A stretch of DNA of 64,000 nt from a virus (IMGVR_UViG_3300042503_002645:1-64000), one strand, 5' to 3'; positions 9,950 to 49,767 are shown, counted from the first letter of the stretch. The notes: generated by a model not told the origin, from the sequence alone. A program made the numbers and translations.

Positions 9950-10947
9950 GTAATTCATCGCCGACGACCGCGCCGCGCAAGATAATCTTTCGCAACTGGC
10001 AAAGCCCGGGCGACCTCGTGATGCTGCTGTTCGCCATCACGAGCCTGCACGAGTCGCATCCGGGCAAGTTCATCACGGACGTGGACTGCGGCGTCAAAGA
10101 TATCTTTGAGCACAATCCTCTGATTACGCCGCTGGACCGCGCGGATTCGGATGTCGAGGTGGTCCACGCCGAGTACCCGAGCATTCACCGCTCGAACACG
10201 CACTCGGTGCGGTTCGTCGAGGCTTTTGGCGAGTACCTGAGTGAGAAGCTGGGCGTGCCGATCAAGCCGACGCGCTTCCACAGCGTGCTGTACATCACGC
10301 CCGAGGAGCAGGGCTGGTTTTCGGGCGTCTACGAAAAACTCCAGAAAGACGTGCCGTACTGGGTCATCAACGCGGGGCACAAGTACGACTACACGGCCAA
10401 GGCCTGGAGCTTCGCGCGCTACCAGGAGCTGGTCGCCCGCTTCCCCGACGTCTGGTTCGTCCAGGTCGGCGCCAAGGAGCACAACCACCCCGAGCTGACC
10501 GGCCCCAACGTTCTGAACTTCATCGGGCAGACCACGATCCGGCAGATGATCCGTTTGGTCTACAACTCGTTCGGCGTGATCTCCGGCGTCAGCTTCCCCA
10601 TGCACCTGGCCTACGCTGTGCCGCCGCACCCGCGGTTCAATCGAAGTAGCCGCGCCAACATCACCATCGCAGGCGGTCGCGAGCCATCGCACTGGGAGGA
10701 GGGACCCAACCACCAGTTCCTCCATACGTGTGGTATGCTCCCCTGCTGCGACATGGGCGGCTGCTGGAAGAGCCGAGTGATCCCGCTGGGCGACAACGAC
10801 TACAAGGACAAGAACCTTTGCAGTCGCCCAGTGGTCATGGAAAACGGCCAGTGGATCGGCGAGTGCATGGCGATGATCAGCGTGGACGAAGTCGCCCGGC
10901 ACATTGAGCGGTACATGGCCTACTTGGATTACTCTCCTAAATTCTGA
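9946..10947 (+). CDS. Glycosyltransferase family 9-like (heptosyltransferase-like, GT-B)
   Basis: SPGDLVM, FEHNP, K.W....YQELV, FVQVG, GQTTIRQ, SFPMHLAYA and a C-terminal CM..I.V.EV pattern. Confidence 0.8.
   Translation: MSNSSPTTAPRKIIFRNWQSPGDLVMLLFAITSLHESHPGKFITDVDCGVKDIFEHNPLITPLDRADSDVEVVHAEYPSIHRSNTHSVRFVEAFGEYLSEKLGVPIKPTRFHSVLYITPEEQGWFSGVYEKLQKDVPYWVINAGHKYDYTAKAWSFARYQELVARFPDVWFVQVGAKEHNHPELTGPNVLNFIGQTTIRQMIRLVYNSFGVISGVSFPMHLAYAVPPHPRFNRSSRANITIAGGREPSHWEEGPNHQFLHTCGMLPCCDMGGCWKSRVIPLGDNDYKDKNLCSRPVVMENGQWIGECMAMISVDEVARHIERYMAYLDYSPKF
10094..10109. repeat. Perfect 16-bp palindrome TCAAAGATATCTTTGA
   Basis: Read directly; lies inside the GT9-like CDS. Confidence 0.8.
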
Positions 10948-10957
10948 AGGATCAGAG

Positions 10958-11482
10958 ATGCCCCACGAAGACGACATCGAGTGGCTGCGAACAGCGCTGG
11001 CACACGCGGCGGCCTATTCAGACGACCCGCGGACGCAGAACGGCGCGGTGATTGTGGCGCAGCCTGGCGGCTACCCCCTCGGCGAGCCGCATTTTGTCGT
11101 GGCCGCAAATTGTTTTCCTGTCGGCGGCATCGGCAGGATTCAGGTCACCGACGAGCGCCTGGACCCGGCCACGAAGCTAACGTACATGGAGCACGCTGAG
11201 CGTGGCGCGATCTACAGGGCCGCGGCGGACCGCGTCACGACCTGGGGCTCGACAATGTACTGCCCGTGGTTCGCCTGCGTGGATTGCGCCCGGGCGATTA
11301 TCTGTTCGGGCATCAAGCGTGTCGTCGGGCTCAAGAAGCCGCGGCTGCTTACTCCCGAGCGTTGGCGGGCGACGATCGAGCAGGCCGATGCGCTGCTGGC
11401 CGAGGCGCACGTTCGCGTCGACCTGCTCGAGGACGAGATCGGTGTCGAGATCCTGTTCAACGGCGAAAAGGTGGTGCTGTGA
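10958..11482 (+). CDS. dCMP deaminase
   Basis: S.DP.TQNGAVIV, HAE, and PWFACVDC Zn-binding motif followed by IICSGIKRVV. Confidence 0.9.
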   Translation: MPHEDDIEWLRTALAHAAAYSDDPRTQNGAVIVAQPGGYPLGEPHFVVAANCFPVGGIGRIQVTDERLDPATKLTYMEHAERGAIYRAAADRVTTWGSTMYCPWFACVDCARAIICSGIKRVVGLKKPRLLTPERWRATIEQADALLAEAHVRVDLLEDEIGVEILFNGEKVVL

Positions 11483-12012
11483 TGCTTTCTCGAGACGACC
11501 TTGGCCCGTGGATGACCGAGCGTGGCTACACCCGGGCCGCGGAGATCGGTGTCTGGAAGGGCGAGTTCTCGGCTCGGCTCCTGAGCACCTGGGACGGGAC
11601 GCTCCACATGATCGACGCCTGGCGGCACCTCGAGGGCTACCAGGACCAGTGCAACCTGCCGGACGAGGAGCACGAGCGTTGCCTCGAAAAAGCTCAGCTC
11701 GTTGCCAGCGCCTTTGCGCCGCGGGGGCTGATTCTGCGTGGATTGTCGCTGGACGTCGCGCCAATGCTTCCGGACGGCTACTTCGACTTGGTCTACCTGG
11801 ACGCCGACCACAGTTACGAAGCGGTCATGCAGGACCTGGCAGCCTGGCGGCCCAAGCTTCGCGCTGGCGGCACGCTCGGCGGGCATGATTACATCGACGG
11901 CGTCCGCGAAGAGGGCGTGTTCGGCGTCAAGACGGCCGTGCACGAGTTCTTTGGGCGCCCGCCTGAGATCATTACGAGCGACTACTACCCCAGCTGGTTC
12001 TACACCGTATGA
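11482..12012 (+). CDS. Class I SAM-dependent methyltransferase (Methyltransf_24-like)
   Basis: AEIGVWKG, FDLVYLDADHSYEAV..DL..W..KL..GG.L.GHDY. Confidence 0.9.
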   Translation: MLSRDDLGPWMTERGYTRAAEIGVWKGEFSARLLSTWDGTLHMIDAWRHLEGYQDQCNLPDEEHERCLEKAQLVASAFAPRGLILRGLSLDVAPMLPDGYFDLVYLDADHSYEAVMQDLAAWRPKLRAGGTLGGHDYIDGVREEGVFGVKTAVHEFFGRPPEIITSDYYPSWFYTV

Positions 12013-12419
12013 CCCCCTTTCGGCGTACGCACATCGCGCTGGACTTCGATCGCACGTTTACCAGCGACATTGAACTGTGGCGGCACCTGATTCGGCTGTT
12101 TGCGCAGCGCGGGCACCGGGTCTATCTGGTTACCGGTCGGCACGATCGTCCGGACAACCACGAGCTGGTGGAACGCGTCGTGGGTGCGCTGGCGTACAAG
12201 TTCCTGAGCGGCTGCGTCTTCTGCAACCACGCGCCCAAGCGCGACGTGATGGAGGCGCGCAGCATTATGATTGACATCTGGATTGACGATTTGCCAGAAA
12301 TGATCGGGCATAACGACCAAGCAGTGTTTCGCAAGCTTGAAGCGCAGCAGCACGTCACCGAGACGTTGCCGGTCTTCGAGCCGGGCGCCGTTGATCCGGC
12401 CGCTGTCTGGCCGTCTTAG
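12009..12419 (+). CDS. HAD-superfamily hydrolase-like protein
   Basis: IALDFDRT motif I, LVTGR, K, and WIDD motif IV. Confidence 0.75.
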   Translation: MTPFRRTHIALDFDRTFTSDIELWRHLIRLFAQRGHRVYLVTGRHDRPDNHELVERVVGALAYKFLSGCVFCNHAPKRDVMEARSIMIDIWIDDLPEMIGHNDQAVFRKLEAQQHVTETLPVFEPGAVDPAAVWPS

Positions 12420-14873: not shown

Positions 14874-14901
14874 TGCGGCAGTGCCGCTGTTCTTTGACAA
14901 C

Positions 14902-15206
14902 CTTTTTGCGCCCGTCTATTGAGACGTGATAAATTGGTGTTTGCGCGTGAAAACGTGCAAATGCTGCGAGTTAGTCGTGGTGGCCGACTGGTTAGGTGCT
15001 ATTTCGGCGGCATGGATGCTTTCGGGGTAGCGGGAACCGTGGTCAGATCATGACGTGAACACGGTCGGAGGCGCGGTGAATGCCACACGGGGCGAACATA
15101 TGCCTTTGTAAGTCACCGCATTACTTCAGCTTGCTGAAGTTGGACCTGGGGGTAGGGGATCCCAGGAGCTCGCGGCACAACAATCGATTTATTTACGCGC
15201 AGAGGG
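14902..15206 (+). ncRNA. Large multibranch structured RNA / 5' leader of the holin-like gene
   Basis: Nested long-range stems (14902-14911/15197-15206, 14925-14939/15183-15197, 14962-14972/15167-15177) enclose at least six hairpins, and a GAAA-capped hairpin lies at 14940-14961. TATAAT occurs at 14869-14874. Confidence 0.6.
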
Positions 15207-15214
15207 CTGATGGG

Positions 15215-15553
15215 ATGTTTTTAGACGCAACTCATCCGCTCTGGGTATTTCTCAGCGCGTTCGGGGTGTCGTCGTTTGCCGGGCTGGCCACGTATCTCCG
15301 TTTTTCGCGTAAAATGTCGCGGCTCGGCCTGCTTAGCGCTATGCTGAATGCGGGTTGTCTCGGGCTGGCGATTTCGCTGCTCTGGTACCGGCATTTCCGG
15401 GAATCGGAGAACATTTATGGCCTCATCGGAATCTGCGTGTTCGCAGGCATGAGCGGGTCGGCGGTCACCGACGTTGTGTGGTCGATTCTTTCTGGATCCG
15501 GAATCAAGGTAAACATTACCCACGAACACAACAGGAGCAACGAAGATGAGTGA
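15215..15553 (+). CDS. Putative holin (three TM segments)
   Basis: 112 aa with three hydrophobic helices, a G..G.SG motif in TM3 and a charged C-terminal tail, typical of class I (LydA-like) holins. Confidence 0.55.
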   Translation: MFLDATHPLWVFLSAFGVSSFAGLATYLRFSRKMSRLGLLSAMLNAGCLGLAISLLWYRHFRESENIYGLIGICVFAGMSGSAVTDVVWSILSGSGIKVNITHEHNRSNEDE

Positions 15554-15695
15554 CCGAAAACTTCGCGTGACTCTGAGCGCGGCGGCTTGGTGCGCCACGC
15601 TCTTGTGGGCCCTGGCGCTGCTTTCGTCCGCTTCAGCGGTCAGTAATAGCCGCGCGGTTATGGCGTCCGAAGCAACAAGAAGCGCGCGTCCATGA
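15546..15695 (+). CDS. Small signal-peptide/membrane protein (49 aa; not in ORF track)
   Basis: AGGAG RBS; MSDRKLRVTLSAAAWCATLLWALALLSSASAVSNSRAVMASEATRSARP*. Overlaps both neighbours. Confidence 0.55.
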   Translation: MSDRKLRVTLSAAAWCATLLWALALLSSASAVSNSRAVMASEATRSARP

Positions 15696-16252
15696 CTTTT
15701 CTCACAGCCATGATGCTTGAACAACCTGCTGGAAAACGGCGCAATTTCGCGACCTGGTGGGCGTTCGCCGCCTCGGTTGCGTGCGCACTGCTGCTTTGGC
15801 ACAACGTCGCGCAGATTAACGCGCGCCAAAGCGAGATCATGAAGATCATCAACTACTCGACGGACGGAATCGTCGTCTGCGACCGGAATGGCAAGGTGCT
15901 CTTTGCCAATGACGCGACGCAGACGATTACCGGATTCAGCGAGCGCGACCTGGTTGACTCTGGCCTGGCGCAAATCATCCCGAACTACCTGCACGACAAG
16001 CATCGCCAGGGCCTCGAGCGCGCCAAAGACAAGAGCGCGCGCGGCATCGAAGGCGTCTTCTATCGAAACATCTATCCGGTCACGCGCAAGGACGGCGAAA
16101 CGATTATTTGTCTGATCAGCGTCGGTAGCGTGCTTCACTTTGGCGGCCCGCAGTTCTTCGCTTACATCACACCCGTTGCCGAGCCGACGGAAAGAAAGTC
16201 TTCCGTCAAACCTGGCGCACTGTCCAGCGTTCCGTCCTCGAGCGCGAAGTGA
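15692..16252 (+). CDS. Membrane-anchored stand-alone PAS-domain protein
   Basis: N-terminal TM, then DGIVVCDRNGKVLFANDA...ITGFS..DL....L..IIP......H and RKDG PAS signature. No kinase or other output domain. Confidence 0.85.
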   Translation: MTFLTAMMLEQPAGKRRNFATWWAFAASVACALLLWHNVAQINARQSEIMKIINYSTDGIVVCDRNGKVLFANDATQTITGFSERDLVDSGLAQIIPNYLHDKHRQGLERAKDKSARGIEGVFYRNIYPVTRKDGETIICLISVGSVLHFGGPQFFAYITPVAEPTERKSSVKPGALSSVPSSSAK

Positions 16253-16262
16253 GGTGACGGCC

Positions 16263-17993
16263 ATGGACGGCTTTTCTGTGCTTGACCCGCTGGCGTGGGA
16301 TCCGTGCGCCATTAAGTTCCACCCGGCCTATCTTGCCGGTAATACGGCAGGTTGGCTGTCGAAGAGTGGCGCTGTTACTGGCACCGACCATTACCTATCC
16401 GGGCGGCTGTACGTCTCGAAGAGTGGCTACCTGCTCCTCTCGGTGCCCAATGCCCTGGTCCGCGGCGTGTTTGACGCCATGACGGCCCCGGGCGTCGAGC
16501 TGCCCACGATGAACGCCTTCAAGGGCGAGGCGGCTGACAAAGAACTGCTCAACGCTCACATCACAGTGATGACCGATGCCGAGGTCGATAAGATCGGCCC
16601 CGACAAGATCAACGAGCGCGGACATCACTTTCACTACGCCCTGGGCCCGGTCCGCGAGTTCTCGCCCAAGACCGAGAGCCTGAGCCGCGTGTGGGCGATC
16701 CAGGTCGCCAGCCCCGAGTTGGCTGCGCTGCGCAAGAGTTACGGCCTGTCGGCGCTGCCCAACGGCGACCACCAGTTTCACATCACGGTTGCCGTGCGCC
16801 GGAAGAACGTCCTGGGCGCTAACGAAGTCGCTAAGATCGACGGCAGCCGGGGCGAGCTCAAGGCGGCAGCCGATCACACGGTGACTTACGACTGCGGGTG
16901 CTCGGGGCCGTGTTCATGCCCTGATACCTGTATTTGCAAGCAAAGCGGCCGGTGTGGTGCGGCACACAAAGCAGCAGCGACTGAAAAGCTGCCCTGGCGC
17001 GAGCGCGCTGAGGTTTACGCGCGCGACCCGAACACTGGCAAGCTGTACGGCGGCAAGTGGGACAACGACGGCTCTTTTGCCCTTCCAGGTGGCGGCATCG
17101 ACCCTGGCGAGGATCCGGCAACGGCAGCGTTGCGCGAGCTGGAAGAAGAGACCGGTATCAAAGCCACCAACGCGCGCGTGTTGCCAATTCCGGCGGTGGA
17201 TTCGCCGTGGAGTGACGCCGTTCGCGCCGAAAAAGCTAAACAAGGGCGCGGTAACTTTGCCGGTTCGCGCACGCACTTTGTTGCTGCCGACATCGTGAAC
17301 CACCCCAAACGCGATGGTCTGGACTACTGGGCCGCGAAAGACAGGGGATACTACGACCCGGCCGACGCGCTAAAGATCATGCAGGGCGTAAAGAAGTTCA
17401 ACGTGCCTAGCATTGCCAACGCGCGGATGGCCGCCATCAACCATCTCATTGCTGAAGCGTCCAAAAAGCAAGCTGCCGCGGTCAAAGACGTCCTGTCCGG
17501 CGGCGAAGCGGATCACAAGCCCGATAGCGAGTTTCCCCAGGAGGCCTTGGCAGAAGGCAAAAAGCATGAGCGAGAACACACGGACAATGCAGAAGTCGCC
17601 GAAGAAATTGCCAAGGATCACCTGTCCGAAGACCCCGCGTACTACGAAAAAGCTAAAGCCCTAGAGAAGCTCTCGAACAGCGTTTACCTGAATCAGGCGT
17701 TTCAGGCGCTCAACCCGGCGACGATCGGCGGGCTCACCCCGTACGACCCGAGCAAACCGGTCTTCGAGAACATCCACCATCAGCTCGCCGAGGCCAAAAA
17801 CCGCGGCGACTTCATCCTGCAGTCGCAGCGCAACTACCAGATGTGGCGCGCGGCTCAGGACCCGCAGTATCGTTACCAGCTTGCCATGCAGGCCGTTCGC
17901 GGCGACATGCCTCAGCCCAGCGTGTTCGATCAGGCGATTGAGCGCTACGGCGACCAGGCGGCCGCGAGCCTTGGTTTTGGACCAGGGAGGTGA
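16263..17993 (+). CDS. Multidomain protein: 2H phosphoesterase + Cys-rich knot + Nudix hydrolase + DUF5661-like domain
   Basis: Two HITV motifs (~16557, ~16779); CGCSGPCSCPDTCICK; Nudix box GGGIDPGEDPATAALRELEEETG; EGKKHEREH...IAKDHLSEDPAYY. Confidence 0.8.
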   Translation: MDGFSVLDPLAWDPCAIKFHPAYLAGNTAGWLSKSGAVTGTDHYLSGRLYVSKSGYLLLSVPNALVRGVFDAMTAPGVELPTMNAFKGEAADKELLNAHITVMTDAEVDKIGPDKINERGHHFHYALGPVREFSPKTESLSRVWAIQVASPELAALRKSYGLSALPNGDHQFHITVAVRRKNVLGANEVAKIDGSRGELKAAADHTVTYDCGCSGPCSCPDTCICKQSGRCGAAHKAAATEKLPWRERAEVYARDPNTGKLYGGKWDNDGSFALPGGGIDPGEDPATAALRELEEETGIKATNARVLPIPAVDSPWSDAVRAEKAKQGRGNFAGSRTHFVAADIVNHPKRDGLDYWAAKDRGYYDPADALKIMQGVKKFNVPSIANARMAAINHLIAEASKKQAAAVKDVLSGGEADHKPDSEFPQEALAEGKKHEREHTDNAEVAEEIAKDHLSEDPAYYEKAKALEKLSNSVYLNQAFQALNPATIGGLTPYDPSKPVFENIHHQLAEAKNRGDFILQSQRNYQMWRAAQDPQYRYQLAMQAVRGDMPQPSVFDQAIERYGDQAAASLGFGPGR

Positions 17994-20159: not shown

Positions 20160-20195
20160 TCGCAAGGACGCGAACTATCATGGCAAGGATGCCAT
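20160..20195 (+). promoter_or_regulatory. Tandem ANGGAN-hexaloop hairpins (CsrA/RsmA-like sites) flanking a start codon
   Basis: TCGC-AAGGAC-GCGA (20160-20173) and ATGGC-AAGGAT-GCCAT (20180-20195). Confidence 0.6.
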
Positions 20196-20989: not shown

Positions 20990-21017
20990 AAACTGCGATA
21001 GCCTGTAGGGAGGCGCT

Positions 21018-22333: not shown

Positions 22334-22352
22334 ATCAGATAGCGAGGTTGCC

Positions 22353-23378
22353 ATGGACGGCGAAGTTTTCTTTGAATCGGTTTTCGACGTACAGAAGGCC
22401 TACGAAGAGGGTTTCGTCGGCGCGATGTGTGACCCTGAGCGCACCGATGCGCTCAAGGCCGCCATTGCGGAGGCAGGTGGCATTCCCGAGGGCGCCGCGG
22501 CTTGTTCCGCGTACGGCCTCGAGGAAACTGGCAAGGGAAAGCTCAGCATCCCGTTCCTGGACGTTTTTTCGCTCTACCCGGACTGCCTCCCGGGTGGAGC
22601 CCAGGGGCGGGGTGACTGTGTTTCGTGGTCGACCCGTAACGCCGGGCTGATCACGATGTGCACTGACATCACCAGCGGACTGGCCGACGAGGAGACTGGT
22701 GTTGTCGAGGGCGCGCCGGAGATCTCCGACAAGGCCCGACTCGGCGGCGTGCTCAGCACTGAAGCGATTTACAATTGGCGCCGTCATGGCGGCGACGGGT
22801 GGTTTTGCAGCGACGCCGCCCAGGTCGTCATGAAGGAATCGGGGCTCTGGCTCCGCAAGGCGTATCCCGAGATCAAGGTCGATTTCGAGACTTACAGCTC
22901 GCGGAACGCCGGGATCTACGGCTCCTCGACGCCGCCCAAGTCCTGGCTCGATATCGGCCGCCAGCACCTGATCCGCACGACCACGGTGCTCAGCAGTTAC
23001 GAAGAGCTTCGTGACATGCTGGCCAACGGCTACGGCGTCAGCTCCTGCGGCGGCGAGTCGTTCTCCGAGCAGCGCGACGCAAACGGCGTGTCGGTCCGCA
23101 CCGCCAAGGGCTGGGCGCATGCCATGGCTTATATCGCGGCCGATGAGCGTCCCGAGGTTATCGCGCTCTACAAGGAGCCGCTAATCCTGGTCCAGAACAG
23201 CTGGGGAAACTGGAACGACGGTGGTCGCCGAATCCTGAACACGAACTTCCAGATTCCCATCGGGTCCTTCTGGGCACGCTGGAGCGCGCTGCGGAATCGC
23301 GACATGATCGCCTTCTCGAGCTTCAATGGCTGGCGGCGCAAGGCGCTGAAGAGCTGGGGCGCGATCGGCAACATCTGA
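22353..23378 (+). CDS. Papain-like (C1-family) cysteine peptidase
   Basis: QGRGDCVSW (oxyanion Gln and catalytic Cys), HAMAYI (His), VQNSWG (Asn). Confidence 0.85.
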   Translation: MDGEVFFESVFDVQKAYEEGFVGAMCDPERTDALKAAIAEAGGIPEGAAACSAYGLEETGKGKLSIPFLDVFSLYPDCLPGGAQGRGDCVSWSTRNAGLITMCTDITSGLADEETGVVEGAPEISDKARLGGVLSTEAIYNWRRHGGDGWFCSDAAQVVMKESGLWLRKAYPEIKVDFETYSSRNAGIYGSSTPPKSWLDIGRQHLIRTTTVLSSYEELRDMLANGYGVSSCGGESFSEQRDANGVSVRTAKGWAHAMAYIAADERPEVIALYKEPLILVQNSWGNWNDGGRRILNTNFQIPIGSFWARWSALRNRDMIAFSSFNGWRRKALKSWGAIGNI

Positions 23379-28900: not shown

Positions 28901-30367
28901 CCCCACGTCTACGAGAAGTTCGTCAGCCAGCTCCGCGGCGCCGGGATCAACACCGTGCGCACCGGCACCAAGACGAACATCATGGCTATGACCGACAAGG
29001 ACGTCGATCAGCTGGCCGGTGACCGCGAGCTGCAGAACAGCGAGACGGTCGACTGGAAGGGCAAGCTGAAGCCGGTCAAAGGCGGCCTGTTCGACGAGCA
29101 GCTCACGGGCGGGCACAGCGGCAACCGCTGGAGCAAAATCACGCTCCACGAGCCGATGCCCAACCCGGTCATGGAAGAGCCGATTCGGCGCGTTCTCGGC
29201 CTGACCGAGAAGCAGTTCCGCGGCGTGCTGGCAGGCGAGGTCCATCTTTTCGATAAGACTGGCCCCGAGGCGCTCAAGGCGGCGCTGGGGCGGATCAACA
29301 TGCCCAAGGCCATCGAGCAGGCCCGGTTAGATATCAAATCGGGCCGCAAGGTGCTGCGCGACGCTGCCGTCCGGCGGCTGGGCTACCTGAAGGCCGCTGA
29401 GGCGCAGGGCGTGCATCCCGAGGACTGGATGCTCACGAAGATGCCGGTGCTTCCGCCGATGTTCCGGCCGGTGTCGCAGATGGGCGCCAGCAAGATGACG
29501 TTGGTTTCTGACGCGAACTACCTGTACAAGGAGCTGCTGGACAGCAACAACGCGCTCAAGGAAACGTCTGGCGCCTTCACCGAGTTCGGCGAAGAGCGGC
29601 TGGGTTTGTATGACGCCATGCGCGCCGTGACTGGGCTGGGTGACCCGACCCAGCCCAAGAACCAGGAACGCCGCGTCAAGGGGTTCCTCCAGCACATCTT
29701 CGGCAGCTCTCCCAAGTACGGCACGGTGCAGCGCAAGCTGCTCAGCACGACCGTTGACCTGGTTGGCCGCGCTGTAATTACGCCCAACCCCGACCTGAAC
29801 ATGGACGAGGTGGCGCTCCCCGAGGACAAGGCCTGGGACGTTTACAAGCCGTTCGTTGTGCGGGGCCTGGTGCGCCGCGGGATGCCGCGCATGAACGCAC
29901 TTGATGCCGTTGAAGGGCGCAACAAAGCGGCCATGGACGAGCTGCAGACGCAAATGTCGTCTCGGCCGATCGTTATCAACCGTGCGCCGGTGCTTCACCG
30001 ATACGGTATGATGGCCTTCTACCCGAAGCTCACCAAGAACAAGGTCATGGAGGTCAACCCGGTCATTACCAAGGGCTTTGGCGCCGATTTCGACGGTGAC
30101 GCGATGCAATATCACGTCCCCAGCACGGAAGAAGCCGCCAGGGAAGCCGCCGAAAAGATGTTGCCCAGCAAGAACCTCTTTTCGACGGCGAGCTTCAAGG
30201 CGCACTACGTTCCAAACAAGGACTATCAGGCTGGTGTGTATCTGGCCTCGAGTCGAGTCGACAAGCGGCAGAAGCCGCGGGTGTTCAAGTCCAGACAGGA
30301 CGCCATCAACGCGTATCACCGCGGCGACATTGACGTCGACACCCCGGTGCATATTGTCGATAGCTAA
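25988..30367 (+). CDS. DNA-directed RNA polymerase: beta subunit fused to the N-terminal half of beta'
   Basis: beta motifs RSVQPSHLG..TPE, LGKNLRVAY..NYEDAVVIS, GDKLTGRYGDKGVI and MKLHH. beta' motifs ETV...KP..GGLF, PVLPPMFRP, NRAPVLHR and catalytic GADFDGD (30080-30100). Confidence 0.95.
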   Translation: MPDSILSGPPVQPPTPRAFGDIGALRTGIFDRALQSASALEPVKNDLHTLQLHDVKYAGPEKFTKADQKRAILTGNSLHRRLTGTWSLLDNTTGQPIATRQTTIAHVPYLTDSGTFVNRGVEYTLAHQMRLKPGVYTREKDNGELEAHVNVLPGKGRMHRYFLDPKTGVMNINIGQAKIPLMPLLKAMGAKDSDIRAAWGNEITAVNMEKGDAGTLDKLYQRLVYKQVPGLDAPGKQQAIAAEFARMELDPDVTRRTLGKDYKNLTPEAILDITKKLIALNRKEADPDDRDAMAYQNVVGPEDLISERFTKDRQSLRKLLWRATAKKNLDHVPTGVFNKAISAALIGSGLGSSLEEINPAEIFDHQARVTRMGEGGIGSLDAVPQESRSVQPSHLGFVDFLRTPESGKVGVDMRFARGAMKGADGKIYTPVVNMKTGQSELKTPGELADMPLAFPGEDKSDMPMVAALVGGKMKYVPREEVQFSLPHMDNTFSGLSNMVPMKSYMKGHRVIMASRMFTQALPLVGAEAPLVQSAIADKDGSSYEDEMGEKLGAVRAQFHGQVVSAEPGMIVVRDREGKKHEIDLYNDMPFNRKTFWHQTPAVQPGDVFKPGQLLAHSNFTDKQGTAALGKNLRVAYLPFQGKNYEDAVVISASAAKKLSSEHMYQHEAEWDDNSRIGKKTFVSLFPTEYDKKTLENFDDKGAIQKGTVVNYGDPLILQAKTKETTYGKVHRGRAGSFSNETVTWEHHSPGVVTDVEHTDKGVQVVVKTQAEMQVGDKLTGRYGDKGVIADVIPDHQMPNDKDGNPFEILVSPLGLISRVNPAQIVEAALGKIAAKTGKPFKMKDFDSTADYVDFAQQELGKHGLSDTEDVLDPETGRKIKGVLTGNRFFMKLHHTAEAKGQGRAMGSYTAEGTPAKGGSEGAKRVGMLDLGALLSHGAGKVIRDAKMVRGQANPEYWSQFMAGYTPPLPKVPHVYEKFVSQLRGAGINTVRTGTKTNIMAMTDKDVDQLAGDRELQNSETVDWKGKLKPVKGGLFDEQLTGGHSGNRWSKITLHEPMPNPVMEEPIRRVLGLTEKQFRGVLAGEVHLFDKTGPEALKAALGRINMPKAIEQARLDIKSGRKVLRDAAVRRLGYLKAAEAQGVHPEDWMLTKMPVLPPMFRPVSQMGASKMTLVSDANYLYKELLDSNNALKETSGAFTEFGEERLGLYDAMRAVTGLGDPTQPKNQERRVKGFLQHIFGSSPKYGTVQRKLLSTTVDLVGRAVITPNPDLNMDEVALPEDKAWDVYKPFVVRGLVRRGMPRMNALDAVEGRNKAAMDELQTQMSSRPIVINRAPVLHRYGMMAFYPKLTKNKVMEVNPVITKGFGADFDGDAMQYHVPSTEEAAREAAEKMLPSKNLFSTASFKAHYVPNKDYQAGVYLASSRVDKRQKPRVFKSRQDAINAYHRGDIDVDTPVHIVDS

Positions 30368-30380
30368 ACACGGAGGTTTA
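30365..30380 (+). promoter_or_regulatory. ANGGAN-hexaloop hairpin over RBS
   Basis: TAAAC-ACGGAG-GTTTA immediately before ATG 30382. Confidence 0.6.
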
Positions 30381-31341: not shown

Positions 31342-33222
31342 ATGCTCAAGACGACGGCGGGACAAATCCTGCTGAACGAGGCGCTCCCGGAAGACCTCCG
31401 GGACTACGAACGCGTCTTGACCAAAAAGGAAATGGGGAAGCTCGCCACTACGCTCGCGGAAAAGCACCCGGACAAGTACCGGGACGTGATGAAGCGGATT
31501 CACGACGTGGGCCGGTCCGCGGGGTTCACCACGAACGGCATGTCGTTCGGGCTGAAAGATATCAAACCCACGCTGGCCGCCCGAGACGCTCAGCTGCGCG
31601 TCCAGCGAGAGCTGCGCAGCATTCTTTCGGATCGCCAACTGAGCGAGCAGGAGCGGTCGCTGAAGATCCTCCGACTGGCCAGCCAGACGCAACGGGAGCT
31701 GGTCGAGAAGGTCTACGAAGAAGCCAAGGGCGCAGATAACCCGCTGGCGCATCAGGTGGCAGGCGCAGCCGTCGGCAACAAGTTTTCGCTGAACTCACTG
31801 ATCGGCGCCGACATGCAGTACGTCGATCACAAGAACGACCCGATCCCGATCCCGGTGCTGCGCGGCTACAGCCAGGGTTTGCGACCGGTGGAGTACTTTG
31901 CGGGCGCATTCGGCACCCGGAAGGGCGTGATGGACCTCAAGGCCGCCACGGCTGACGCGGGATTTTTCGCGAAGCAGCTCACCCAGATGACGCACAGGCT
32001 GCTCGTCACCGACGACGACGAGCGCGATCAGGACCGCCTTGCCGTCGCGCACGACCGCGGTTTCCCCACCGACGTCGACGACGTTGACAACGAAGGCGCA
32101 CTTCTCGCCCGGCCGGTGGGGCCGTACAAGCGCAACACGATTCTGACGCCGAAAATCTTGAAAGATATCAAAGAGCTCGGAATCAAAGACATTCTCGTGC
32201 GCAGCCCGATGGTCGGCGGCCCTGATGACGGCGGCGTCTATGCTAAGGACGTCGGCTACCGCGAAAAGGGCAGCTTGCCGCCAATTGGCGACTATGTCGG
32301 CATTGCCGCGGCCCAGGCGCTTTCTGAGCCGGTCACGCAGGCGCAGATCTCTTCGAAGCACTCGGGTGGCGTGGGCGGCGCCAGCGCCATCGGCGGCTTC
32401 AAGGCGATCAACGCGCTTGTTCAGGTGCCCAAGAAGTATCCGGACGGCGCGGCGCACGCACAGGTAGATGGGCGTGTCCAGGACATTCGCCCGGCACCCC
32501 AGGGCGGCCATTACGTTCAGATCAACGGCCAGGATCACTACGTGCCTGTTGATCGCGAGCTGTCGGTGACGCGCGGCCAGGAAATCGAGGCGGGTGACGT
32601 AATTTCCGATGGCATGCCCAATCCGGCCGAGGTCGTCAGGCACAAGGGCATCGGCGAGGGGCGGCGCTACTTTGTGCAGGCCATGCAGACTGTGTTCAAG
32701 AATTCAGGCGTGTCTGGCCACCGTCGCAACATCGAGTTGCTGTCCCGCGGACTTGTAAACCACGTGCGCATGACGGACGAGCATGGCGATTACAGCCCAG
32801 ACGACATTGTTCCTTATTCGATGCTCGAGCGCGCCTGGGAGCCCCGCACGGGCAGCGTGACGGGAGAGCCCAAAACCCTGATGGGGCACTATCTGGAGCG
32901 CCCGATCCTGCACTACTCGATCGGGACAAAGATCGGGAAAAACGTGGTTGGTACGCTGGGTAAGTACGGCATAAACAACATTGAGGCGCACCGCGAGCCG
33001 CCGCCATTCCAGCCCGAGATGATTCGAGGCATGTCCAATATCTCGAACGACCCAGACTGGATGACCCGTATGCTTGGCTCGTACCAGCAAAAGGGGCTGC
33101 TCAGCAGCGTGCATCGCGGCGGCACCAGTGACACGGCAGGTAGCAGCTTTGTGCCCGCTTTGTCGCGCGGCGAGACGTTCGGTGCGTCGGGCGCAACGAG
33201 CGGATGGCGCCCGCAAACGTGA
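31342..33222 (+). CDS. DNA-directed RNA polymerase beta' C-terminal half
   Basis: TTAGQILLNE; bridge helix GLRPVEYF...GTRKG..D....TADAG; trigger loop VGIAAAQALSEPVTQ....KHSGG; RRNIELLSR. Confidence 0.92.
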   Translation: MLKTTAGQILLNEALPEDLRDYERVLTKKEMGKLATTLAEKHPDKYRDVMKRIHDVGRSAGFTTNGMSFGLKDIKPTLAARDAQLRVQRELRSILSDRQLSEQERSLKILRLASQTQRELVEKVYEEAKGADNPLAHQVAGAAVGNKFSLNSLIGADMQYVDHKNDPIPIPVLRGYSQGLRPVEYFAGAFGTRKGVMDLKAATADAGFFAKQLTQMTHRLLVTDDDERDQDRLAVAHDRGFPTDVDDVDNEGALLARPVGPYKRNTILTPKILKDIKELGIKDILVRSPMVGGPDDGGVYAKDVGYREKGSLPPIGDYVGIAAAQALSEPVTQAQISSKHSGGVGGASAIGGFKAINALVQVPKKYPDGAAHAQVDGRVQDIRPAPQGGHYVQINGQDHYVPVDRELSVTRGQEIEAGDVISDGMPNPAEVVRHKGIGEGRRYFVQAMQTVFKNSGVSGHRRNIELLSRGLVNHVRMTDEHGDYSPDDIVPYSMLERAWEPRTGSVTGEPKTLMGHYLERPILHYSIGTKIGKNVVGTLGKYGINNIEAHREPPPFQPEMIRGMSNISNDPDWMTRMLGSYQQKGLLSSVHRGGTSDTAGSSFVPALSRGETFGASGATSGWRPQT

Positions 33223-33302
33223 TTCTGTAGGATGTAAGAGCTACGACACGGTAAATTGTTGCTTACGCGTGTCTTATGTCGTGCCGCACGGAGGTGGCTG
33301 CT

Positions 33303-35690: not shown

Positions 35691-36089
35691 ATGGGACACA
35701 GCACGATTTGGTCCGGCGAGACGGTGTTCGAGGCGACCAGCGGCGCAGAGGCCGTCGTGGCGCTCAAGGTGCCGCATCGCGGCGTGATCCGCGGTTTCAG
35801 CCTGTCGCAAACCAGCGGCGCCAACGCGGGCGCGGCTGCGGCGATCTACACCAGCAAGCAAGACACCACGCCCAACAGCACGCTCCCTGCCGAGGCGTTT
35901 CACATCCTCGACATTACGCTCACGGCGGCGGCCAAGGTTGATAATCACAACCTGAACGTCGCGTACGTGAACCGAGACGGCACGCCGACGAATCCGCAAA
36001 GATATCTTTACTTGAAGATCACCCCTGCAGGTTCGGGCGCCAAGAACTTCGTGTTCTCGATCACCATTGAGACGCCATCGCTGCGCTAA
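35691..36089 (+). CDS. Hypothetical beta-rich protein
   Basis: AAGGTG RBS; coupled to the downstream gene. Confidence 0.65.
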   Translation: MGHSTIWSGETVFEATSGAEAVVALKVPHRGVIRGFSLSQTSGANAGAAAAIYTSKQDTTPNSTLPAEAFHILDITLTAAAKVDNHNLNVAYVNRDGTPTNPQRYLYLKITPAGSGAKNFVFSITIETPSLR

Positions 36090-37018
36090 TGCTCCAAGCA
36101 CTTCGAGATAACCCGCGGCGCGCCCCGAACTGGCGCTGGCTGCGGGCTGTGCATATTGACGGCGGCGGCCCCAAGGCCTCCCGCGCCATGGACGGCGAGG
36201 AGGGCTTTAGCTGGATCCGCCGCGCGTCTCGCATGAAGCGGCGGTACGAACGTGCAGGCGGCCGCCCGGACGTACTTTACCGGCTGATCCAGTACGACCG
36301 CGAAATGTTCTGGGCGCACTCGATTTGGCTTGATGACAAGGCGCCGACGCGTTGGGCGATTGAGGCCCGCATTTTGGCGGGCGAATCCAACGAGGGTATC
36401 GCGGAGCGCCTCGGCACGGCCCCCGAAATCATCGCCGCCTACGAGAGCGTCTTTTTCAATGTGCGCGACATGCTCGACCGCCGCGATTACATCGTCAACG
36501 TAGTTATGGGCGACGCCGTGACCCGCGGGCTTTCCGAGCGGCAATACGACTTGCTCTGGAAGCTTTTTGGCTACCACGGCGGCAGCCACGTCCTGGACGC
36601 GGTGATCTCGAAGTTCTCGCCGATTGCCAAGCCCGAGAAGTCGGACGACGTCGGCCAGTTCTTCCAGGACTTTGCGGTGAACACCGTGAAGCACAAGGCC
36701 GCGATTGCCACGCTGACGGTCCCAATCAACACGCACACCCAGCTGGCGATTATCGACTCGTTCGTTCAGTACGTGCAGATCGAGAAAAACAGCGAAAACT
36801 CCGGAAAAGCCCAGTCGACCATCGTCGAGAACATCGGGGCCATGCTTGGGGCGCTGCCTTTCCGAATCGGCACGAAACTGGAATCCAGAGCCGACAAAAT
36901 GTTACCTTACGATGACGGCGCGGCAGAGCTGCGCAACGATGAGTTGATGGTTGTCGCGACCGGCGGCACGATCATTGACCACAAAGAAATCCAGGACCTG
37001 CGGTTCCCGGGAGAATAA
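36089..37018 (+). CDS. Hypothetical protein with possible HTH
   Basis: IEARILAGESNEGIAERLGTAPEIIAAYESVFF resembles a helix-turn-helix. Confidence 0.55.
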   Translation: MLQALRDNPRRAPNWRWLRAVHIDGGGPKASRAMDGEEGFSWIRRASRMKRRYERAGGRPDVLYRLIQYDREMFWAHSIWLDDKAPTRWAIEARILAGESNEGIAERLGTAPEIIAAYESVFFNVRDMLDRRDYIVNVVMGDAVTRGLSERQYDLLWKLFGYHGGSHVLDAVISKFSPIAKPEKSDDVGQFFQDFAVNTVKHKAAIATLTVPINTHTQLAIIDSFVQYVQIEKNSENSGKAQSTIVENIGAMLGALPFRIGTKLESRADKMLPYDDGAAELRNDELMVVATGGTIIDHKEIQDLRFPGE

Positions 37019-38949: not shown

Positions 38950-38959
38950 GGGTCTAGGC

Positions 38960-39811
38960 ATGGATGCCAACACACTGAACGACCTTGCTAGCTCGTTGGC
39001 CGTGCTCTCGGTGACCGGCGATCGGGCGCCGCTGGAAAAGGCCGCCGCGGATTATCTCAAACAGGCCGACCTGATGCAGCAGCTGCAGGGTTACGGCAAC
39101 CAAGCAGCCGATTACGCCAAGGGGCTGTACGCACAGGCTCAGCCGCACTTGGCTGACCCTTACGTGCGGAATTCGCTCATCGGCCTCGGCGCCGGTGGAC
39201 TTGTCGGCATGATGCAGCCGAAGCGCAAGCTTCGTAGCGCGCTGACTTACGGCCTGGTAGGCGGCCTGGGCGGCCTGGGCCTGGCGCATGCGCTCAACGG
39301 CGGCCAGCTTCCCGCGGGCGGCGGCGGAAACGCTGCTGCGTCCGCCGATCGAGCCGCACGAGTGCAGGCGGCGAATACAGCAATCGTGGCCGAGGGCAAA
39401 AATCCAGGCGCGCGGCAACTTGCCGGGCAGGTCGCAGGCTTCGCGACAGCTGTACCCGCTTATGGTGTGATTCGTGATCGGCTCATTGCCCGAAACGGCA
39501 TGCGCAACCTGTACAACGTGCCGGAGACGGCCAGCCGCGCGACGCGCGAGATTGCGCAGCGCGTCCAGCCGCAGGGCGACAAGTTTGTGTTCACCGCCAA
39601 TGAGCCGTCCGAGCTTAAGCGACTGTCGGCAGCCAAGCTTGAAGCAAACAGGCTGGCAAAACCCACGCTTAGCCAGCGCACGCTCGCGGGCACGGGCGCG
39701 GGCGTTGTCGGTATTCTGTCTTCGCTCGGCATGGGGCGGCTCGGTGAGTGGGCGGCTAACTATTACAATAAGCCGCTGTACGACGCCAAAACTAGGGCGC
39801 AAGCACAATGA
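38960..39811 (+). CDS. Putative internal virion protein with glycine zippers
   Basis: EKAAADYLKQA; no Cys; GLGAGGLVG and GLVGGLGGLGLA. The start ATG sits in a GGC-ATGGAT-GCC hairpin. Confidence 0.55.
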   Translation: MDANTLNDLASSLAVLSVTGDRAPLEKAAADYLKQADLMQQLQGYGNQAADYAKGLYAQAQPHLADPYVRNSLIGLGAGGLVGMMQPKRKLRSALTYGLVGGLGGLGLAHALNGGQLPAGGGGNAAASADRAARVQAANTAIVAEGKNPGARQLAGQVAGFATAVPAYGVIRDRLIARNGMRNLYNVPETASRATREIAQRVQPQGDKFVFTANEPSELKRLSAAKLEANRLAKPTLSQRTLAGTGAGVVGILSSLGMGRLGEWAANYYNKPLYDAKTRAQAQ

Positions 39812-41328: not shown

Positions 41329-42669
41329 ATGGCACGGATGCAACGATCGCTTTTTGCGCAGCTCAACGCTTTGGCCGAAGAGATTTCACAGGGCGCTGTG
41401 AAATCTGCCGCCGACAAGAAGGCGGAAGGCCCCACCCCTGCTGATCCCGGTACCTACACTGGCACTTCTTCGCACCCGACCGCCAACGTTGACAACAACG
41501 TGCAAAAGGCGGAGACCGGCGCGCGTGCTTCGGAGTACGAAGCCGACATCAAGAAGCAGCAAGGCGCGCTTGCTGTCGACAACACTCCCGAGATGTCGTA
41601 CGAGGGGCGCCAGGACGAGGTCCAGCAGAACATCGGCACCAACGTCGCCGCCACTGGCGAAGACCCGGCTGCCGAGCGCGACTTCAAGGGCGACAAGGAC
41701 GACCCGGGCACCACGCATCCCGCCAAGACCAACGACGGCGAGAAGTACAGCTCGGTGACGTTCAAGGAAGCCCGCGACCGCGCGGCTGCTCTCGGCAACG
41801 GTATCCTCGCCGAGCTTCTCAACGCCAGCACCAAGCAGGCCGAGATGCCCGCCTTCTTGAAGGACAAGAAGAAGGAAGCTCCGGCCAAGGGTGGGCTCAA
41901 GGGCGACCAGCACAAGCTGGACGTCGATAACGACGGCAAGATCGAGGGCTCCGACCTCAAATCGCTCCGCGCTGGTAAGGAAGCATCCTTCAAGGCTGGG
42001 TATGAGCTCGCTGCGCAGCTCGGTCTGTCGAAGGAAGCCGCCGAGGCGTCTGTCCGCGAGATCTGCGCGAACACGCTCCGCGAGACTGACGAAATGGCCG
42101 ACCTTTTCATCGGTTTTGTCAGCGGCAAGTCAGCAGCGGCTGATCCGGCCGACGAGGCCGAGGAAGGCGAAGACCACTCGGCACCCGGCGATGATGCGTC
42201 CGGCGCGAGCCAGGCGGACGGCGCCGGTGGCGCTCCGGCTGACCTCGCTGGCATGATGGGCGGCGAAAGCGCACCGCCCATGGACGCCGGTGCTGAAGGC
42301 GGCGCGCCTGGCGGCGCATCGGAAGACGAAGCCATGCAAGAACTCGCCATGGCGCTTGAAGAGCTCGGCATTCCGCCCGAAGCGCTTCTCCAGGCTGTGG
42401 CTGGCGGCGCCGGTGGCGCTCCGGCTGATGCTGGCATGGGCGGCATGGGTGGCATGGGTGGCATGGGTGGCGCCCCCGCGGGTCCCGAGATGGCGCCCGA
42501 GATGGCTCCCAAGATGGCCGCGGCAAACGACCTGCGCACGATCGGCACGGCAGTCGTGAATTTCAAGCGCTCCGGCAAGTTCCAGGTCAAGGAAGCTCGC
42601 ACGAAGCGGTCGCGTCAGTTGCGCGACTTCATGAAGCAGCATGTTCTGGAACTCACTCGTTCCCGTTAA
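41329..42669 (+). CDS. Putative capsid scaffolding/core protein
   Basis: Acidic and low complexity, between protease and MCP; many K-x-A motifs; EF-hand-like LDVDNDGKIEGSDL; GGM repeats. Confidence 0.6.
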   Translation: MARMQRSLFAQLNALAEEISQGAVKSAADKKAEGPTPADPGTYTGTSSHPTANVDNNVQKAETGARASEYEADIKKQQGALAVDNTPEMSYEGRQDEVQQNIGTNVAATGEDPAAERDFKGDKDDPGTTHPAKTNDGEKYSSVTFKEARDRAAALGNGILAELLNASTKQAEMPAFLKDKKKEAPAKGGLKGDQHKLDVDNDGKIEGSDLKSLRAGKEASFKAGYELAAQLGLSKEAAEASVREICANTLRETDEMADLFIGFVSGKSAAADPADEAEEGEDHSAPGDDASGASQADGAGGAPADLAGMMGGESAPPMDAGAEGGAPGGASEDEAMQELAMALEELGIPPEALLQAVAGGAGGAPADAGMGGMGGMGGMGGAPAGPEMAPEMAPKMAAANDLRTIGTAVVNFKRSGKFQVKEARTKRSRQLRDFMKQHVLELTRSR

Positions 42670-42690
42670 TTCACACGGAGGTTTGAAATC

Positions 42691-43145: not shown

Positions 43146-43161
43146 AAGACATGGAGGTCTT
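43146..43161 (+). promoter_or_regulatory. ANGGAN-hexaloop hairpin over RBS
   Basis: AAGAC-ATGGAG-GTCTT before ATG 43165. Confidence 0.6.
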
Positions 43162-43733: not shown

Positions 43734-43749
43734 GGAACATGGAGGTTCC
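43734..43749 (+). promoter_or_regulatory. ANGGAN-hexaloop hairpin over MCP RBS
   Basis: GGAAC-ATGGAG-GTTCC before ATG 43754. Confidence 0.6.
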
Positions 43750-47457: not shown

Positions 47458-47497
47458 CGCTGGCGCCGCCCTTCGGGGCGGTGTCAGCGTCTTTCTT
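47458..47497 (+). terminator. Intrinsic terminator
   Basis: CGCTGGCGCCGCCC-TTCG-GGGCGGTGTCAGCG followed by TCTTTCTT. Confidence 0.75.
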
Positions 47498-47529
47498 AGA
47501 TATCAGCGCTCCCCGGATACAATAATGCT

Positions 47530-48786: not shown

Positions 48787-48940
48787 CGCCGCCCGATAGC
48801 GCCTGCCGAGTTAACCGGGTATCGTATGGATAAAGACAAAGCGAAAAAGCTCCGCCTGCAGCCGCCACGGATGGCGATGCACCATAAGCCGATACGCATG
48901 CTTCCGGTCATGAAGTTGCCGGAACCCGACGCAGCAAAGG

Positions 48941-49663
48941 ATGGCTTGCGTGAGTACTTGCGACGACACGCCAAACCCGCCGGAAATTGAGGCGCTGTAC
49001 CCTGAAGGGAGCACGCCGGAGCCGCGCCTGGACAAGGTGAGCGCGCTGTGCTCCTACGGCATGCGGCCGCACGTTATGACCGGCCTGCTGCGGCAGCTGT
49101 TGCTGGCGCATTTCTCCGACCCGGAGAACATCGAGGAACCGCGTGTGCGCCGCCAGCTCGAGCAGATCGGCATGTGGCGCCCCAGCGATAACGGTTTGAA
49201 CGCCGGTGGTATTTTGATAGAAAGTATCACACGCTGGCAGCCCGCAACTGCCGATAAGCGCCCGGCCATTCTGCTCCGCAGAAACGGCTGGCGCTGGCAG
49301 CGGCAAGGTATCGGCGACAAGGCACAAACGAACGCGTACGAGGGGTCGACGCACTACGCCGGGTTGTGGGAAGGCAGCCATACGCTGTTCTGCCTGTGCC
49401 CCAGCGGCGCCGAAACTGAGTTGCTGGCCACGGAGGTCGTTAAGTTTTTACACTCCTTCGCGCCCTGGATTCGCGAGCAAATGAACCTTTTCCGGTTCTT
49501 TGTCAGCGAAGTTGGCGGGGTCAGCGAAGTTCAAGAAGCGTTGCAGGGCTACGCCGTACCTGTAACCGTTGCATACATGGCCGAGGAAGCCTGGCAGCTC
49601 CAGCCGTATGCGCCGCGCCTCAAGCGGATTGTCTTTAAGGCGACTGACCTGTTGTCGTACTAA
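48941..49663 (+). CDS. Putative tail terminator/tail completion protein
   Basis: RPAILLRR and C....AETE.LA.EV; directly precedes the sheath. Start may be GTG 48950. Confidence 0.55.
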   Translation: MACVSTCDDTPNPPEIEALYPEGSTPEPRLDKVSALCSYGMRPHVMTGLLRQLLLAHFSDPENIEEPRVRRQLEQIGMWRPSDNGLNAGGILIESITRWQPATADKRPAILLRRNGWRWQRQGIGDKAQTNAYEGSTHYAGLWEGSHTLFCLCPSGAETELLATEVVKFLHSFAPWIREQMNLFRFFVSEVGGVSEVQEALQGYAVPVTVAYMAEEAWQLQPYAPRLKRIVFKATDLLSY

Positions 49664-49753
49664 GGAAAATTCACACACCGTGTCGTGACAACTGATTTTT
49701 TTTGATCACGTTGCGTGGGTTATACTGAGCCCGTCGCACCGTTCACGACATTT

Positions 49754-49767
49754 AGGCATGGAGGCCT
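49754..49767 (+). promoter_or_regulatory. ANGGAN-hexaloop hairpin over sheath RBS
   Basis: AGGC-ATGGAG-GCCT before ATG 49773; AT-rich upstream region with TATACT at 49721-49726. Confidence 0.55.

Follow-up and report, generated by a model that had tools for sequence, protein, structure and literature searches.

Introduction

As described by Duss et al. (2014, PMC4005645), the high-affinity site of the bacterial CsrA/RsmE proteins is an ANGGAX hexaloop that stands directly on a stem, closed in the RsmZ loops by a C-G and then a U-A pair. The E. coli CsrA consensus obtained by SELEX, RUACARGGAUGU, has six-base loops with its AC and GU paired, mostly on no more than 4 contiguous base pairs (Dubey 2005, in Pourciau et al. 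2020, PMC7652899). Phages can carry csrA genes as well: they were described in 30 phages by Sobrero and Valverde (2020, PMC7366521) and in many more by Campa et al. (2021, PMC8450108), who proposed that they repress host CRISPR-Cas, and the knock-down of gp28, a csrA homologue of phage PTXU04, led to smaller plaques (Adler et al. 2025, PMC11879866), in a report that calls the life-cycle role one that "has not been previously tested". Here, we analyze a 64,000-nt stretch of viral DNA (IMGVR_UViG_3300042503_002645:1-64000, hereafter the window) in which hairpins with ANGGAN hexaloops occur at translation starts, including those of the major capsid gene and a probable tail sheath gene. A sequence-only reading had taken these hairpins for a CsrA/RsmA-like regulon on phage late genes.

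We report the hairpins themselves, their enrichment at starts, the covariation of their stems, a csrA gene on the same contig and the co-occurrence of hairpins with csrA among relatives. Judging from these sequence comparisons, it is probable that the phage CsrA binds the hairpins as operators on the phage's own mRNAs and sets the timing or the amount of their translation.

Results

Hairpins with ANGGAN Loops Are Enriched at Translation Starts

The window is the first 64 kb of one 119,044-bp viral contig (G000) with 62% G+C, and the counts below cover the whole contig. The gene set (121 genes) came from a simple custom caller that uses codon usage and the ribosome site; it is crude, and its choice of starts is unable to create complementarity between flanks. 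Stem length was counted as the consecutive Watson-Crick or G-U pairs flanking the ANGGAN hexamer. The near-start zone was −25 to +10 of a called start, and stems of at least 4 bp were called hairpins.

By these rules, 16 of 57 near-start ANGGAN sites form hairpins, compared with 7 of 272 sites in sense gene interiors (Fisher p 1.3e-7), and the count over the contig bears out the enrichment that the sequence-only reading implied. Antisense sites gave 1 of 128, and sites elsewhere 3 of 91. When the 5′ flanks were shuffled among the near-start sites, a mean of 1.77 hairpins was obtained (sd 1.26), and none of 5000 shuffles reached 16. Only one register gives the signal: of the 121 near-start GGAs, 18 sit at positions 3–5 of a hexaloop, and each other loop size or offset accounts for 6 or fewer, except for an octaloop (10), which is the same hairpin opened by one pair. 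Position 1 of the loop is A in 16 of the 18 hairpins in this register, against 56 of 121 for all near-start GGAs. The general density of hexaloop hairpins is unraised at starts (20.9 vs 20.8 per kb), and stems of at least 2 bp surround 29 of the 272 interior ANGGAN sites, about one in nine.

The Phage Encodes a CsrA Homologue

Could the phage itself supply a protein that binds such sites? The earlier reading had proposed a search for csrA in the rest of the genome, and a CsrA homologue was indeed found at G000:C1:88530-88724, on the plus strand, 24 kb past the end of the window. A search of the contig with the Pfam CsrA family matched at one place only (88,533–88,679, plus strand, E 2.1e-21). 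The gene starts with GTG at 88,530 and encodes 64 amino acids, of which residues 2–50 score 74 bits on the 53-position family profile PF02599 (E 9e-21), where the curated cut-off is 27. Among proteins of solved structure, the best match is RsmE from Pseudomonas (2jpp, E 1.7e-8).

Among 32 homologues, L2, L4, R6, R44 and E46 are invariant, and the RNA-contacting residues align with those of RsmE. Leu2, Leu4 and Arg6 are residues of the N-terminal strand that we take to have RNA-contacting roles, and Arg44 of RsmE contacts RNA in the account of Duss et al. (PMC4005645). A two-copy complex prediction with the 32-row alignment scored 0.33, against a mark of 0.42, and weighs neither way on whether the protein forms the interlocked homodimer with two RNA-binding faces that is typical of the family. 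The homologues recovered were mainly metagenome proteins, some of them on contigs of 180–208 kb, and they offered no hint of a host.

The leader of the phage's own csrA gene has a 2-bp stem only. The csrA genes of three relatives, G042, G037 and G044 (L068, L073 and L074; clade of G041), carry their own Shine-Dalgarno (SD) sequence in a 4–5 bp AAGGAG hairpin, with a stem that differs in each genome, which suggests autoregulation of csrA in that clade and not in the phage of the window. Two CsrA-family matches each were seen in G032 (L071/L094), G037 (L073/L093) and G042 (L068/L092). Those of G037 lie about 200 bp apart in one open frame of 184 aa, in a genome with few ANGGAN ribosome sites.

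Hairpin Enrichment and csrA Occur Together in Relatives

CsrA matches were found in 25 of 50 related records surveyed, out of 61. Of the 19 records with a completeness rating of 90% or more, 16 have one. Eleven relatives were fetched whole and analyzed together with G000, with the same caller and the same shuffle test (2000 shuffles). In what follows, hairpins of at least 4 bp are given over near-start ANGGAN sites; the brackets hold the mean of the shuffles and how many of them reached the observed count. Among the csrA carriers, we counted 16/57 in G000 (1.84; 0/2000), 15/94 in G002 (2.10; 0), 20/85 in G025 (2.32; 0), 8/115 in G033 (2.49; 2), 12/71 in G039 (1.78; 0), where the CsrA match is weak (E 1.3e-4), 25/154 in G041 (3.51; 0), 14/110 in G044 (2.11; 0) and 2/17 in G037, with its two matches (0.30; 54). 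The relatives without csrA gave 0/143 in G047 (shuffled mean 2.67), 2/96 in G048 (1.44), 3/105 in G050 (1.22) and 3/90 in G043 (1.59). Seven of the eight carriers are clearly enriched, whereas none of the four csrA-less genomes is, although the latter, at 49–66% G+C, have as many near-start ANGGAN sites as the carriers.

The capsid tree places G047, G048 and G050 together as the outgroup (support 100/99) and nests G043, with its near-twin G046, among the csrA carriers G037, G042, G041 and G044 (100/100). In G041, conserved genes border a variable block of about 8 kb that contains csrA, and the syntenic gap of G043 spans 2.6 kb without csrA. G041 has 25 hairpin genes, 17 of them with an orthologue in G043, and the hairpin is kept in 2 of those 17. 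Taken together, the comparison of the 12 genomes suggests that hairpin enrichment follows the phage csrA gene.

At ribosome sites where G041 has hairpins, G043 shows long, purine-rich, unstructured sites without complementary flanks (L171–L180).

Stems Covary at the Capsid Gene and Its Neighbour

A search of IMG/VR with the capsid protein gave 65 loci, whose identity ranges from 99% to 56% and whose contigs measure up to about 235 kb. The sequence that flanks the hairpin upstream of the capsid gene varies freely among them, yet the hairpin itself is kept, with different complementary stems. In a MAFFT alignment of 36 capsid leaders, 34 of them distinct, 94.1% of the cells are paired, and four of the five base pairs have changed on both sides. 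The covariation score was 0.426, compared with 0.153 for shuffled alignments (0/500) and at most 0.251 for slid controls. For the hairpin of the gene that starts at 43165, directly upstream of the capsid gene, 89.2% of the cells are paired in 37 distinct sequences, and the score was 0.375, compared with 0.139 for shuffles (0/500) and at most 0.099 for slid controls; because the sequences are related, these shuffle counts are not probabilities. The stem covariation that the sequence-only reading had named as a check was thus seen at both genes.

The sheath gene and the genes 33303, 30382, 69771 and 95875 likewise have orthologues with different complementary stems at the same offset. Gene 33303 has other complementary stems in G025, G039, G033 and G041, and gene 30382 has a different 7-bp stem in G025. 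The hairpin of gene 69771, in which GGAUG is presented, covaries across G002, G025, G039, G033 and G041 and is absent from all four csrA-less genomes.

The Hairpins Resemble the Published CsrA/RsmE Site

On the contig, the ANGGAN hexaloop stands directly on a stem of at least 4 bp at 16 sites. We also pooled 96 hairpins from six csrA-carrying genomes. The stems measure 4–6 bp in 91 of them, and 71 are closed by C-G, 8 by G-C. A-U or U-A follows as the next pair in 38 of 96, which leaves only the C-G half of the published closing rule strong. Where a G follows the hexamer, a C stands before it at 168 of 247 sites in the csrA-carrying genomes, compared with 44 of 188 in the csrA-less ones. Among hairpin loops, ACGGAG is the commonest (21/96); among unpaired sites it ranks fourth, and the SD-like AAGGAG comes first.

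Relative to the start, 74 of the pooled loops lie at −17 to −10, 11 at −5/−4, 5 at 0 and 6 at +5 to +10. The start codon rather than the SD is held by 16 of the 96, either as GGAUG at the start codon (11) or as AUGGAN in the loop (5). Because some hairpins hold the start codon, and the GGAUG hairpin of gene 69771 covaries, presentation of the SD alone is an insufficient role for these structures.

CsrA sites had been said to come often in pairs, and this did not carry over. A second GGA within 10–60 nt is found in 83% of 93 hairpin genes and in 75% of 759 other SD genes (p 0.30). Gene 20180 is the only one with two hairpins, 21 nt apart. When only upstream second GGAs are counted, there is an excess of 0.98 vs 0.77 per gene (p 0.017, uncorrected).

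Hairpins of the Window

All 13 hairpin strings named in the sequence-only reading were found where it had placed them. Ten have stems of 4–6 bp (10943, 16260, 20160, 20180, 22348, 30365, 33283, 43146, 43734 and 49754), whereas that at 38957 has 3 bp and those at 41332 and 42673 only 2 bp, neither of them formed in local folds. Three hairpins came in addition: 474–491 (6 bp, gene 496), 36184–36197 (4 bp) and 21004–21015 (3 bp). In local folds, the hairpin is the minimum free energy (MFE) or centroid structure at 43734, 43146, 49752, 30365, 474, 22348, 16259 and 36184; for the sites 33283 and 20160, it is neither. At 10943 and 20180, the AAGGAT loop is folded into an AGGA tetraloop, since its A and U are also able to pair.

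The hairpins described next are all on the plus strand. That of the major capsid gene (start 43754) occupies 43734..43749 and consists of a 5-bp stem and an ATGGAG hexaloop holding the SD; the MFE fold is exactly this hairpin, at −6.3 kcal/mol. The identity of the gene rests on a tblastn match to an annotated major capsid protein (E 1e-22). For the 182-aa gene directly upstream (start 43165), string, fold and covariation agree on a 5-bp stem whose ATGGAG hexaloop lies over the SD (43146..43161). A 6-bp stem with an ATGGAG hexaloop, at 49752..49769, lies over the SD of the gene that starts at 49773 and probably encodes the tail sheath (PHROG tail sheath, E 1.6e-6). The leader of this gene, 49746–49778, takes an extended fold of −14.2 kcal/mol (z −2.65), with a second helix below the hexaloop hairpin that pairs the start-codon region with upstream bases.

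ACGGAG hexaloops cover the SD of three further genes. One of these, with a GTG start at 33303, encodes 792 aa and lies upstream of the capsid gene; the stem at 33283..33298 has 5 bp, one of them G-U, its local fold is ambiguous, and the hairpin is not the MFE structure. At 30365..30380, a 5-bp stem that overlaps the upstream stop codon precedes a 242-aa gene (start 30382) between two RNA polymerase genes. At 474..491, a 6-bp stem that is present in the MFE fold precedes a 708-aa gene (start 496), for which no orthologue was found among the nine relatives compared.

The gene of a dCMP deaminase (start 10958; Pfam dCMP_cyt_deam_1) has a 5-bp stem with an AAGGAT loop over its SD at 10942..10957, and the sole orthologue found, in G025, is without the hairpin. 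Two hairpins belong to a gene with peptidase and peptidoglycan-binding domains (start 20180; Pfam Peptidase_M10 and PG_binding_1). At 20160..20173, a 4-bp stem with an AAGGAC hexaloop, not the MFE structure, lies over the SD region, and at 20180..20195, a 5-bp palindromic stem runs from the ATG onward through the codons of M-A-R-M, with AAGGAT in the loop. The latter is identical in G002, and G025 keeps the stem and differs in the loop and the fourth codon. Two unrelated proteins had been said to begin with M-A-R-M and thereby to encode a second hairpin. Both proteins exist (starts 20180 and 41329), but only the one at 20180 has a real second hairpin. The site just past start 41329 (41332..41341) has a 2-bp "stem" round ACGGAT, is unformed in the fold and was not counted as a hairpin; its identity in G002 and G025 is explicable by coding conservation alone.

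The remaining sites are weaker. A 4-bp stem with the start codon in its loop (ATGGAC) occupies 16259..16272 at the 2H phosphoesterase/NUDIX gene (start 16263); it is the centroid fold, and relatives have 2–3 bp only, without covariation. A 5-bp stem, also with ATGGAC in the loop, lies at 22348..22363 at the start of a 341-aa gene (22353), and it shrinks to 3 bp in G002 and to none in G025. At 36184..36197, a 4-bp stem with an ATGGAC loop forms within a longer stem of −17.9 kcal/mol, and it is doubtful that translation starts here, since the open reading frame (ORF) 36089-37018 begins 33 codons upstream and its orthologues align from further upstream, which makes the ATG at 36188 probably an internal one. 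Stems of 3 bp surround ATGGAT at a probable start (38957..38968; ATG 38960) and, with one G-U pair, AGGGAG over the SD of a 94-aa gene (21004..21015; start 21018), where relatives have other stems of 2–3 bp. The 2-bp "stem" round the ACGGAG SD of gene 42691 (42673..42682) is unformed in the fold and was not counted, and the orthologue of that gene in G033 has a 4-bp hairpin.

The exact 12-mer GCCATGGACGGC occurs three times (16260, 22350 and 36185), each time at an in-frame ATG-GAC-GGC (M-D-G). The three genes show no obvious similarity round the 12-mer, and the repeat count is far above chance for 119 kb. Two bases past the ATG of an uncalled ORF (5026–5520) begins a stem of 7 bp with an AGGGAC loop (5028–5047), which may be a further operator. 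The longest GGA-loop hairpin of the contig, a 10-bp stem with an AGGGAA hexaloop, lies past the window at about 105,790–105,815 on the minus strand, in a 775-bp stretch without a called gene.

Genes That Carry Hairpins

Past the window, hairpins belong to the genes 69771, 85216, 87840, which adjoins csrA, and 95875 (GNAT). The sequence-only reading had confined the hairpins to late genes, and this is not borne out, since the dCMP deaminase, the GNAT acetyltransferase and the small gene between the RNA polymerase genes carry them too. The hairpin gene set is centred on abundant virion proteins and is not one of late genes alone.

The RNA polymerase of the window is a multisubunit enzyme in two genes, 25988–30367 and 31342–33222. 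The 1459-aa protein has Rpb2 domains followed by Rpb1 domains 1–2 (beta fused to the N-terminal part of beta′), and the 626-aa protein has Rpb1 domain 5. The gene at 16263–17993 encodes a 576-aa protein with a 2H phosphoesterase domain, a NUDIX domain and DUF5661.

The contig, rated 58% complete by CheckV, comes from an uncultured freshwater jumbo phage. The sequencing runs that hold the phage sequence are labelled as lake-water and freshwater metagenomes, with small shares in three RNA-library runs, whose contigs carry no information on transcript ends or levels and may include DNA. Contigs of relatives at 85% likeness span the capsid gene, and one of them has 52 extra letters before 43734 that do not fit the window. 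Among deposited phages, a nucleotide search with the capsid region gave no match, and a search with the capsid protein gave relatives at 27–28% identity only.

Discussion

How might the phage use these hairpins? We suggest that the phage has a Csr-type translational circuit of its own, in which phage CsrA would dock on ANGGAN hexaloops atop stems of 4–6 bp, usually closed by C-G, in about a dozen phage mRNAs, whose loops carry the GGA of the SD or, in a minority, the start codon. These messages would include those of the major capsid protein, its upstream neighbour 43165, the tail sheath and the 792-aa gene 33303. Competition between bound CsrA and the 30S subunit would set the timing or amount of translation, and the effect would presumably be repression. 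Relief would need no antagonist if the messages came to outnumber CsrA late in infection. Titration without a sponge RNA, by operators that co-evolve with CsrA on the most abundant mRNAs, is a possible elaboration that we offer as tentative, in which the virus would have adopted the entire Csr logic for its own ends: the capsid, sheath and other messages would stay silent until they outnumber CsrA, which would give a sharp, self-timed onset and balanced virion proteins, and the operators would decay fast once csrA is lost, as in G043.

The gating by a CsrA-like protein that the sequence-only reading had proposed is thus upheld in part. The csrA gene of the phage, the match to the published site, the covariation and the co-occurrence speak for it, whereas its restriction to late genes, the paired sites, three of the thirteen stems, which are trivial, and the link to host carbon status find no support. 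That last link is unsupported, and nothing bearing on it was found.

Several points weigh against control by the phage CsrA. Repressing the most abundant virion proteins is of no obvious benefit. The co-occurrence amounts to two independent contrasts only, the outgroup trio and G043/G046, and phages without csrA might infect hosts without CsrA. The csrA-less G043 is rated 84% complete and keeps a 7-bp hairpin at its sheath gene, and G037, with two csrA matches, is weakly enriched (2/17; reached by 54 of 2000 shuffles). CsrA dimers usually have a second GGA site, and no enrichment of such sites was seen. The gene starts come from a crude custom caller, the fold at 33283 is ambiguous, and the three sites with the start in the loop (16260, 22350 and 36185) are one shared 12-mer without covariation in relatives, which is why we count them as weak. 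A search of all 119,044 bases for a sponge RNA gave no Rfam family at gathering score, and a FliW family search of the contig gave no match; with the contig rated 58% complete, the absence of either is not established. A cluster of ANGGAN hairpins was likewise sought in 38 uncalled gaps and not found, the gap 14,874–16,262 holding only one hairpin of 3 bp and one of 6 bp. A looser scan for clusters of GGA in loops found as many in csrA-less genomes and was uninformative.

Might the hairpins act without CsrA, by presenting the SD in an open loop or stabilizing mRNA in a GC-rich genome, with the phage csrA directed at host mRNAs only? The SD lies in the loop at −17 to −10 in 74 of the 96 pooled hairpins, the 3′ half of the stem comes from the GGAGG(T) of a strong SD, a sheath hairpin persists in G043 without csrA while G037 has csrA and little enrichment, and host-directed roles have been proposed for phage CsrA (PMC8450108, PMC11879866). 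Yet the csrA-less G050 (66% GC), G043 (66%) and G048 (57%), of similar or higher GC, have as many near-start ANGGAN sites without the hairpins, and overall hairpin density at starts is unraised. Moreover, the A at loop position 1 (16/18) and the C-G closing pair (71/96) are needed by CsrA and not by pairing with the anti-SD, and 16 of the 96 hairpins hold the start codon instead of the SD. We therefore regard a CsrA-independent role as unlikely. That the ligand is the host's CsrA, so that the phage would couple its protein synthesis to the host Csr state and its own copy would top up or compete, seems to us quite improbable. The sequence-only reading had left room for a host protein, the hairpin site is a generic CsrA/RsmE optimum, and the presence of csrA in phages and hosts correlates (Campa et al., PMC8450108), but the enrichment tracks the phage gene among close relatives, including its nested loss in G043 beside the csrA-carrying sister G044. 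Phage and host CsrA may both bind.

Another factor that reads GGAG at ribosome sites, such as an endoribonuclease like RegB of T4, is a distant prospect. The target of RegB resembles NNGGAG loops, and 61 of the 96 pooled loops read NNGGAG; however, the other 35 have GGAU, GGAC or GGAA, the contig has no match to the family (PF10715, E up to 1), and the A at loop position 1 together with the C-G closing pair fits CsrA. Chance, or a by-product of SD composition and of an eye for palindromes, can account for the sites of 2–3 bp, which make up three of the thirteen originally listed and whose stems of at least 2 bp recur at 29 of 272 interior sites. As an explanation of the whole set, it is scarcely credible in view of the shuffles (0/5000), the Fisher test (p 1.3e-7), the covariation in two orthologous sets and the enrichment repeated in six further genomes. 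Binding of the phage CsrA to operators on phage mRNAs is the reading that we prefer.

If so, what would this mean for phage biology? The targets of phage CsrA have so far been assumed to be host genes in the reports at hand (PMC7366521, PMC8450108, PMC11879866), and candidate operators on the phage's own mRNAs, conserved and covarying, can now be named. Together with the natural controls that lack csrA, these operators make the role of phage CsrA directly addressable. They also suggest that large phages time or balance the synthesis of virion proteins by translational control, besides their transcriptional programmes.

Among known systems, RsmE bound to the ribosome-site stem-loop of hcnA and to RsmZ in Pseudomonas (PDB 2jpp, 2mfc-2mfh; PMC4005645) shares with the phage hairpins the ANGGAN hexaloop on a short, C-G-closed stem that overlaps the ribosome-binding site. 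The two differ in that the protein and the operators would both be viral in the phage, with virion and other phage genes as targets; no sponge like RsmX/Y/Z was found on the contig, and a second upstream GGA of the hcnA type is not general. The AC/GU pairs round a hexaloop with central GGA, known from the E. coli SELEX site (PMC7652899), recur literally at the capsid, 43165 and 30382 leaders, whereas loop position 6 is mostly G (of GGAGG) and not U in the phage, and some phage stems reach 6–7 bp. Like PTXU04, the phage has csrA in its genome, and the knock-down phenotype of PTXU04 shows that such genes can matter to a phage (PMC11879866). For published phage CsrA proteins, host manipulation was proposed, and no own-mRNA targets are named in the parts of those reports used here (PMC7366521, PMC8450108, PMC11879866), in contrast to the conserved candidate cis-operators described above.

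In the literature searched by full text, which lies largely outside subscription journals, we found no description of CsrA-type operators on a phage's own genes. What may be new here is the negative control, namely csrA-less relatives without the hairpins. In the CsrA-FliW-flagellin system of Bacillus subtilis, CsrA acts on the SD hairpin of an mRNA for an abundant, polymerising structural protein. The synthesis of capsid and sheath could, on this analogy, be kept in step with assembly, although, unlike the partner switch of B. subtilis, the phage contig (119 kb) showed no FliW homologue in the search and no sign of a protein antagonist. The coat proteins of MS2 and PP7 and the RegA protein of T4 offer a further parallel, as in each case a phage protein represses phage translation through a small RNA element at the initiation site. 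Their folds are unrelated to that of CsrA, and the phage described here has one type of operator over a dozen or more genes, with a regulator borrowed from bacteria.

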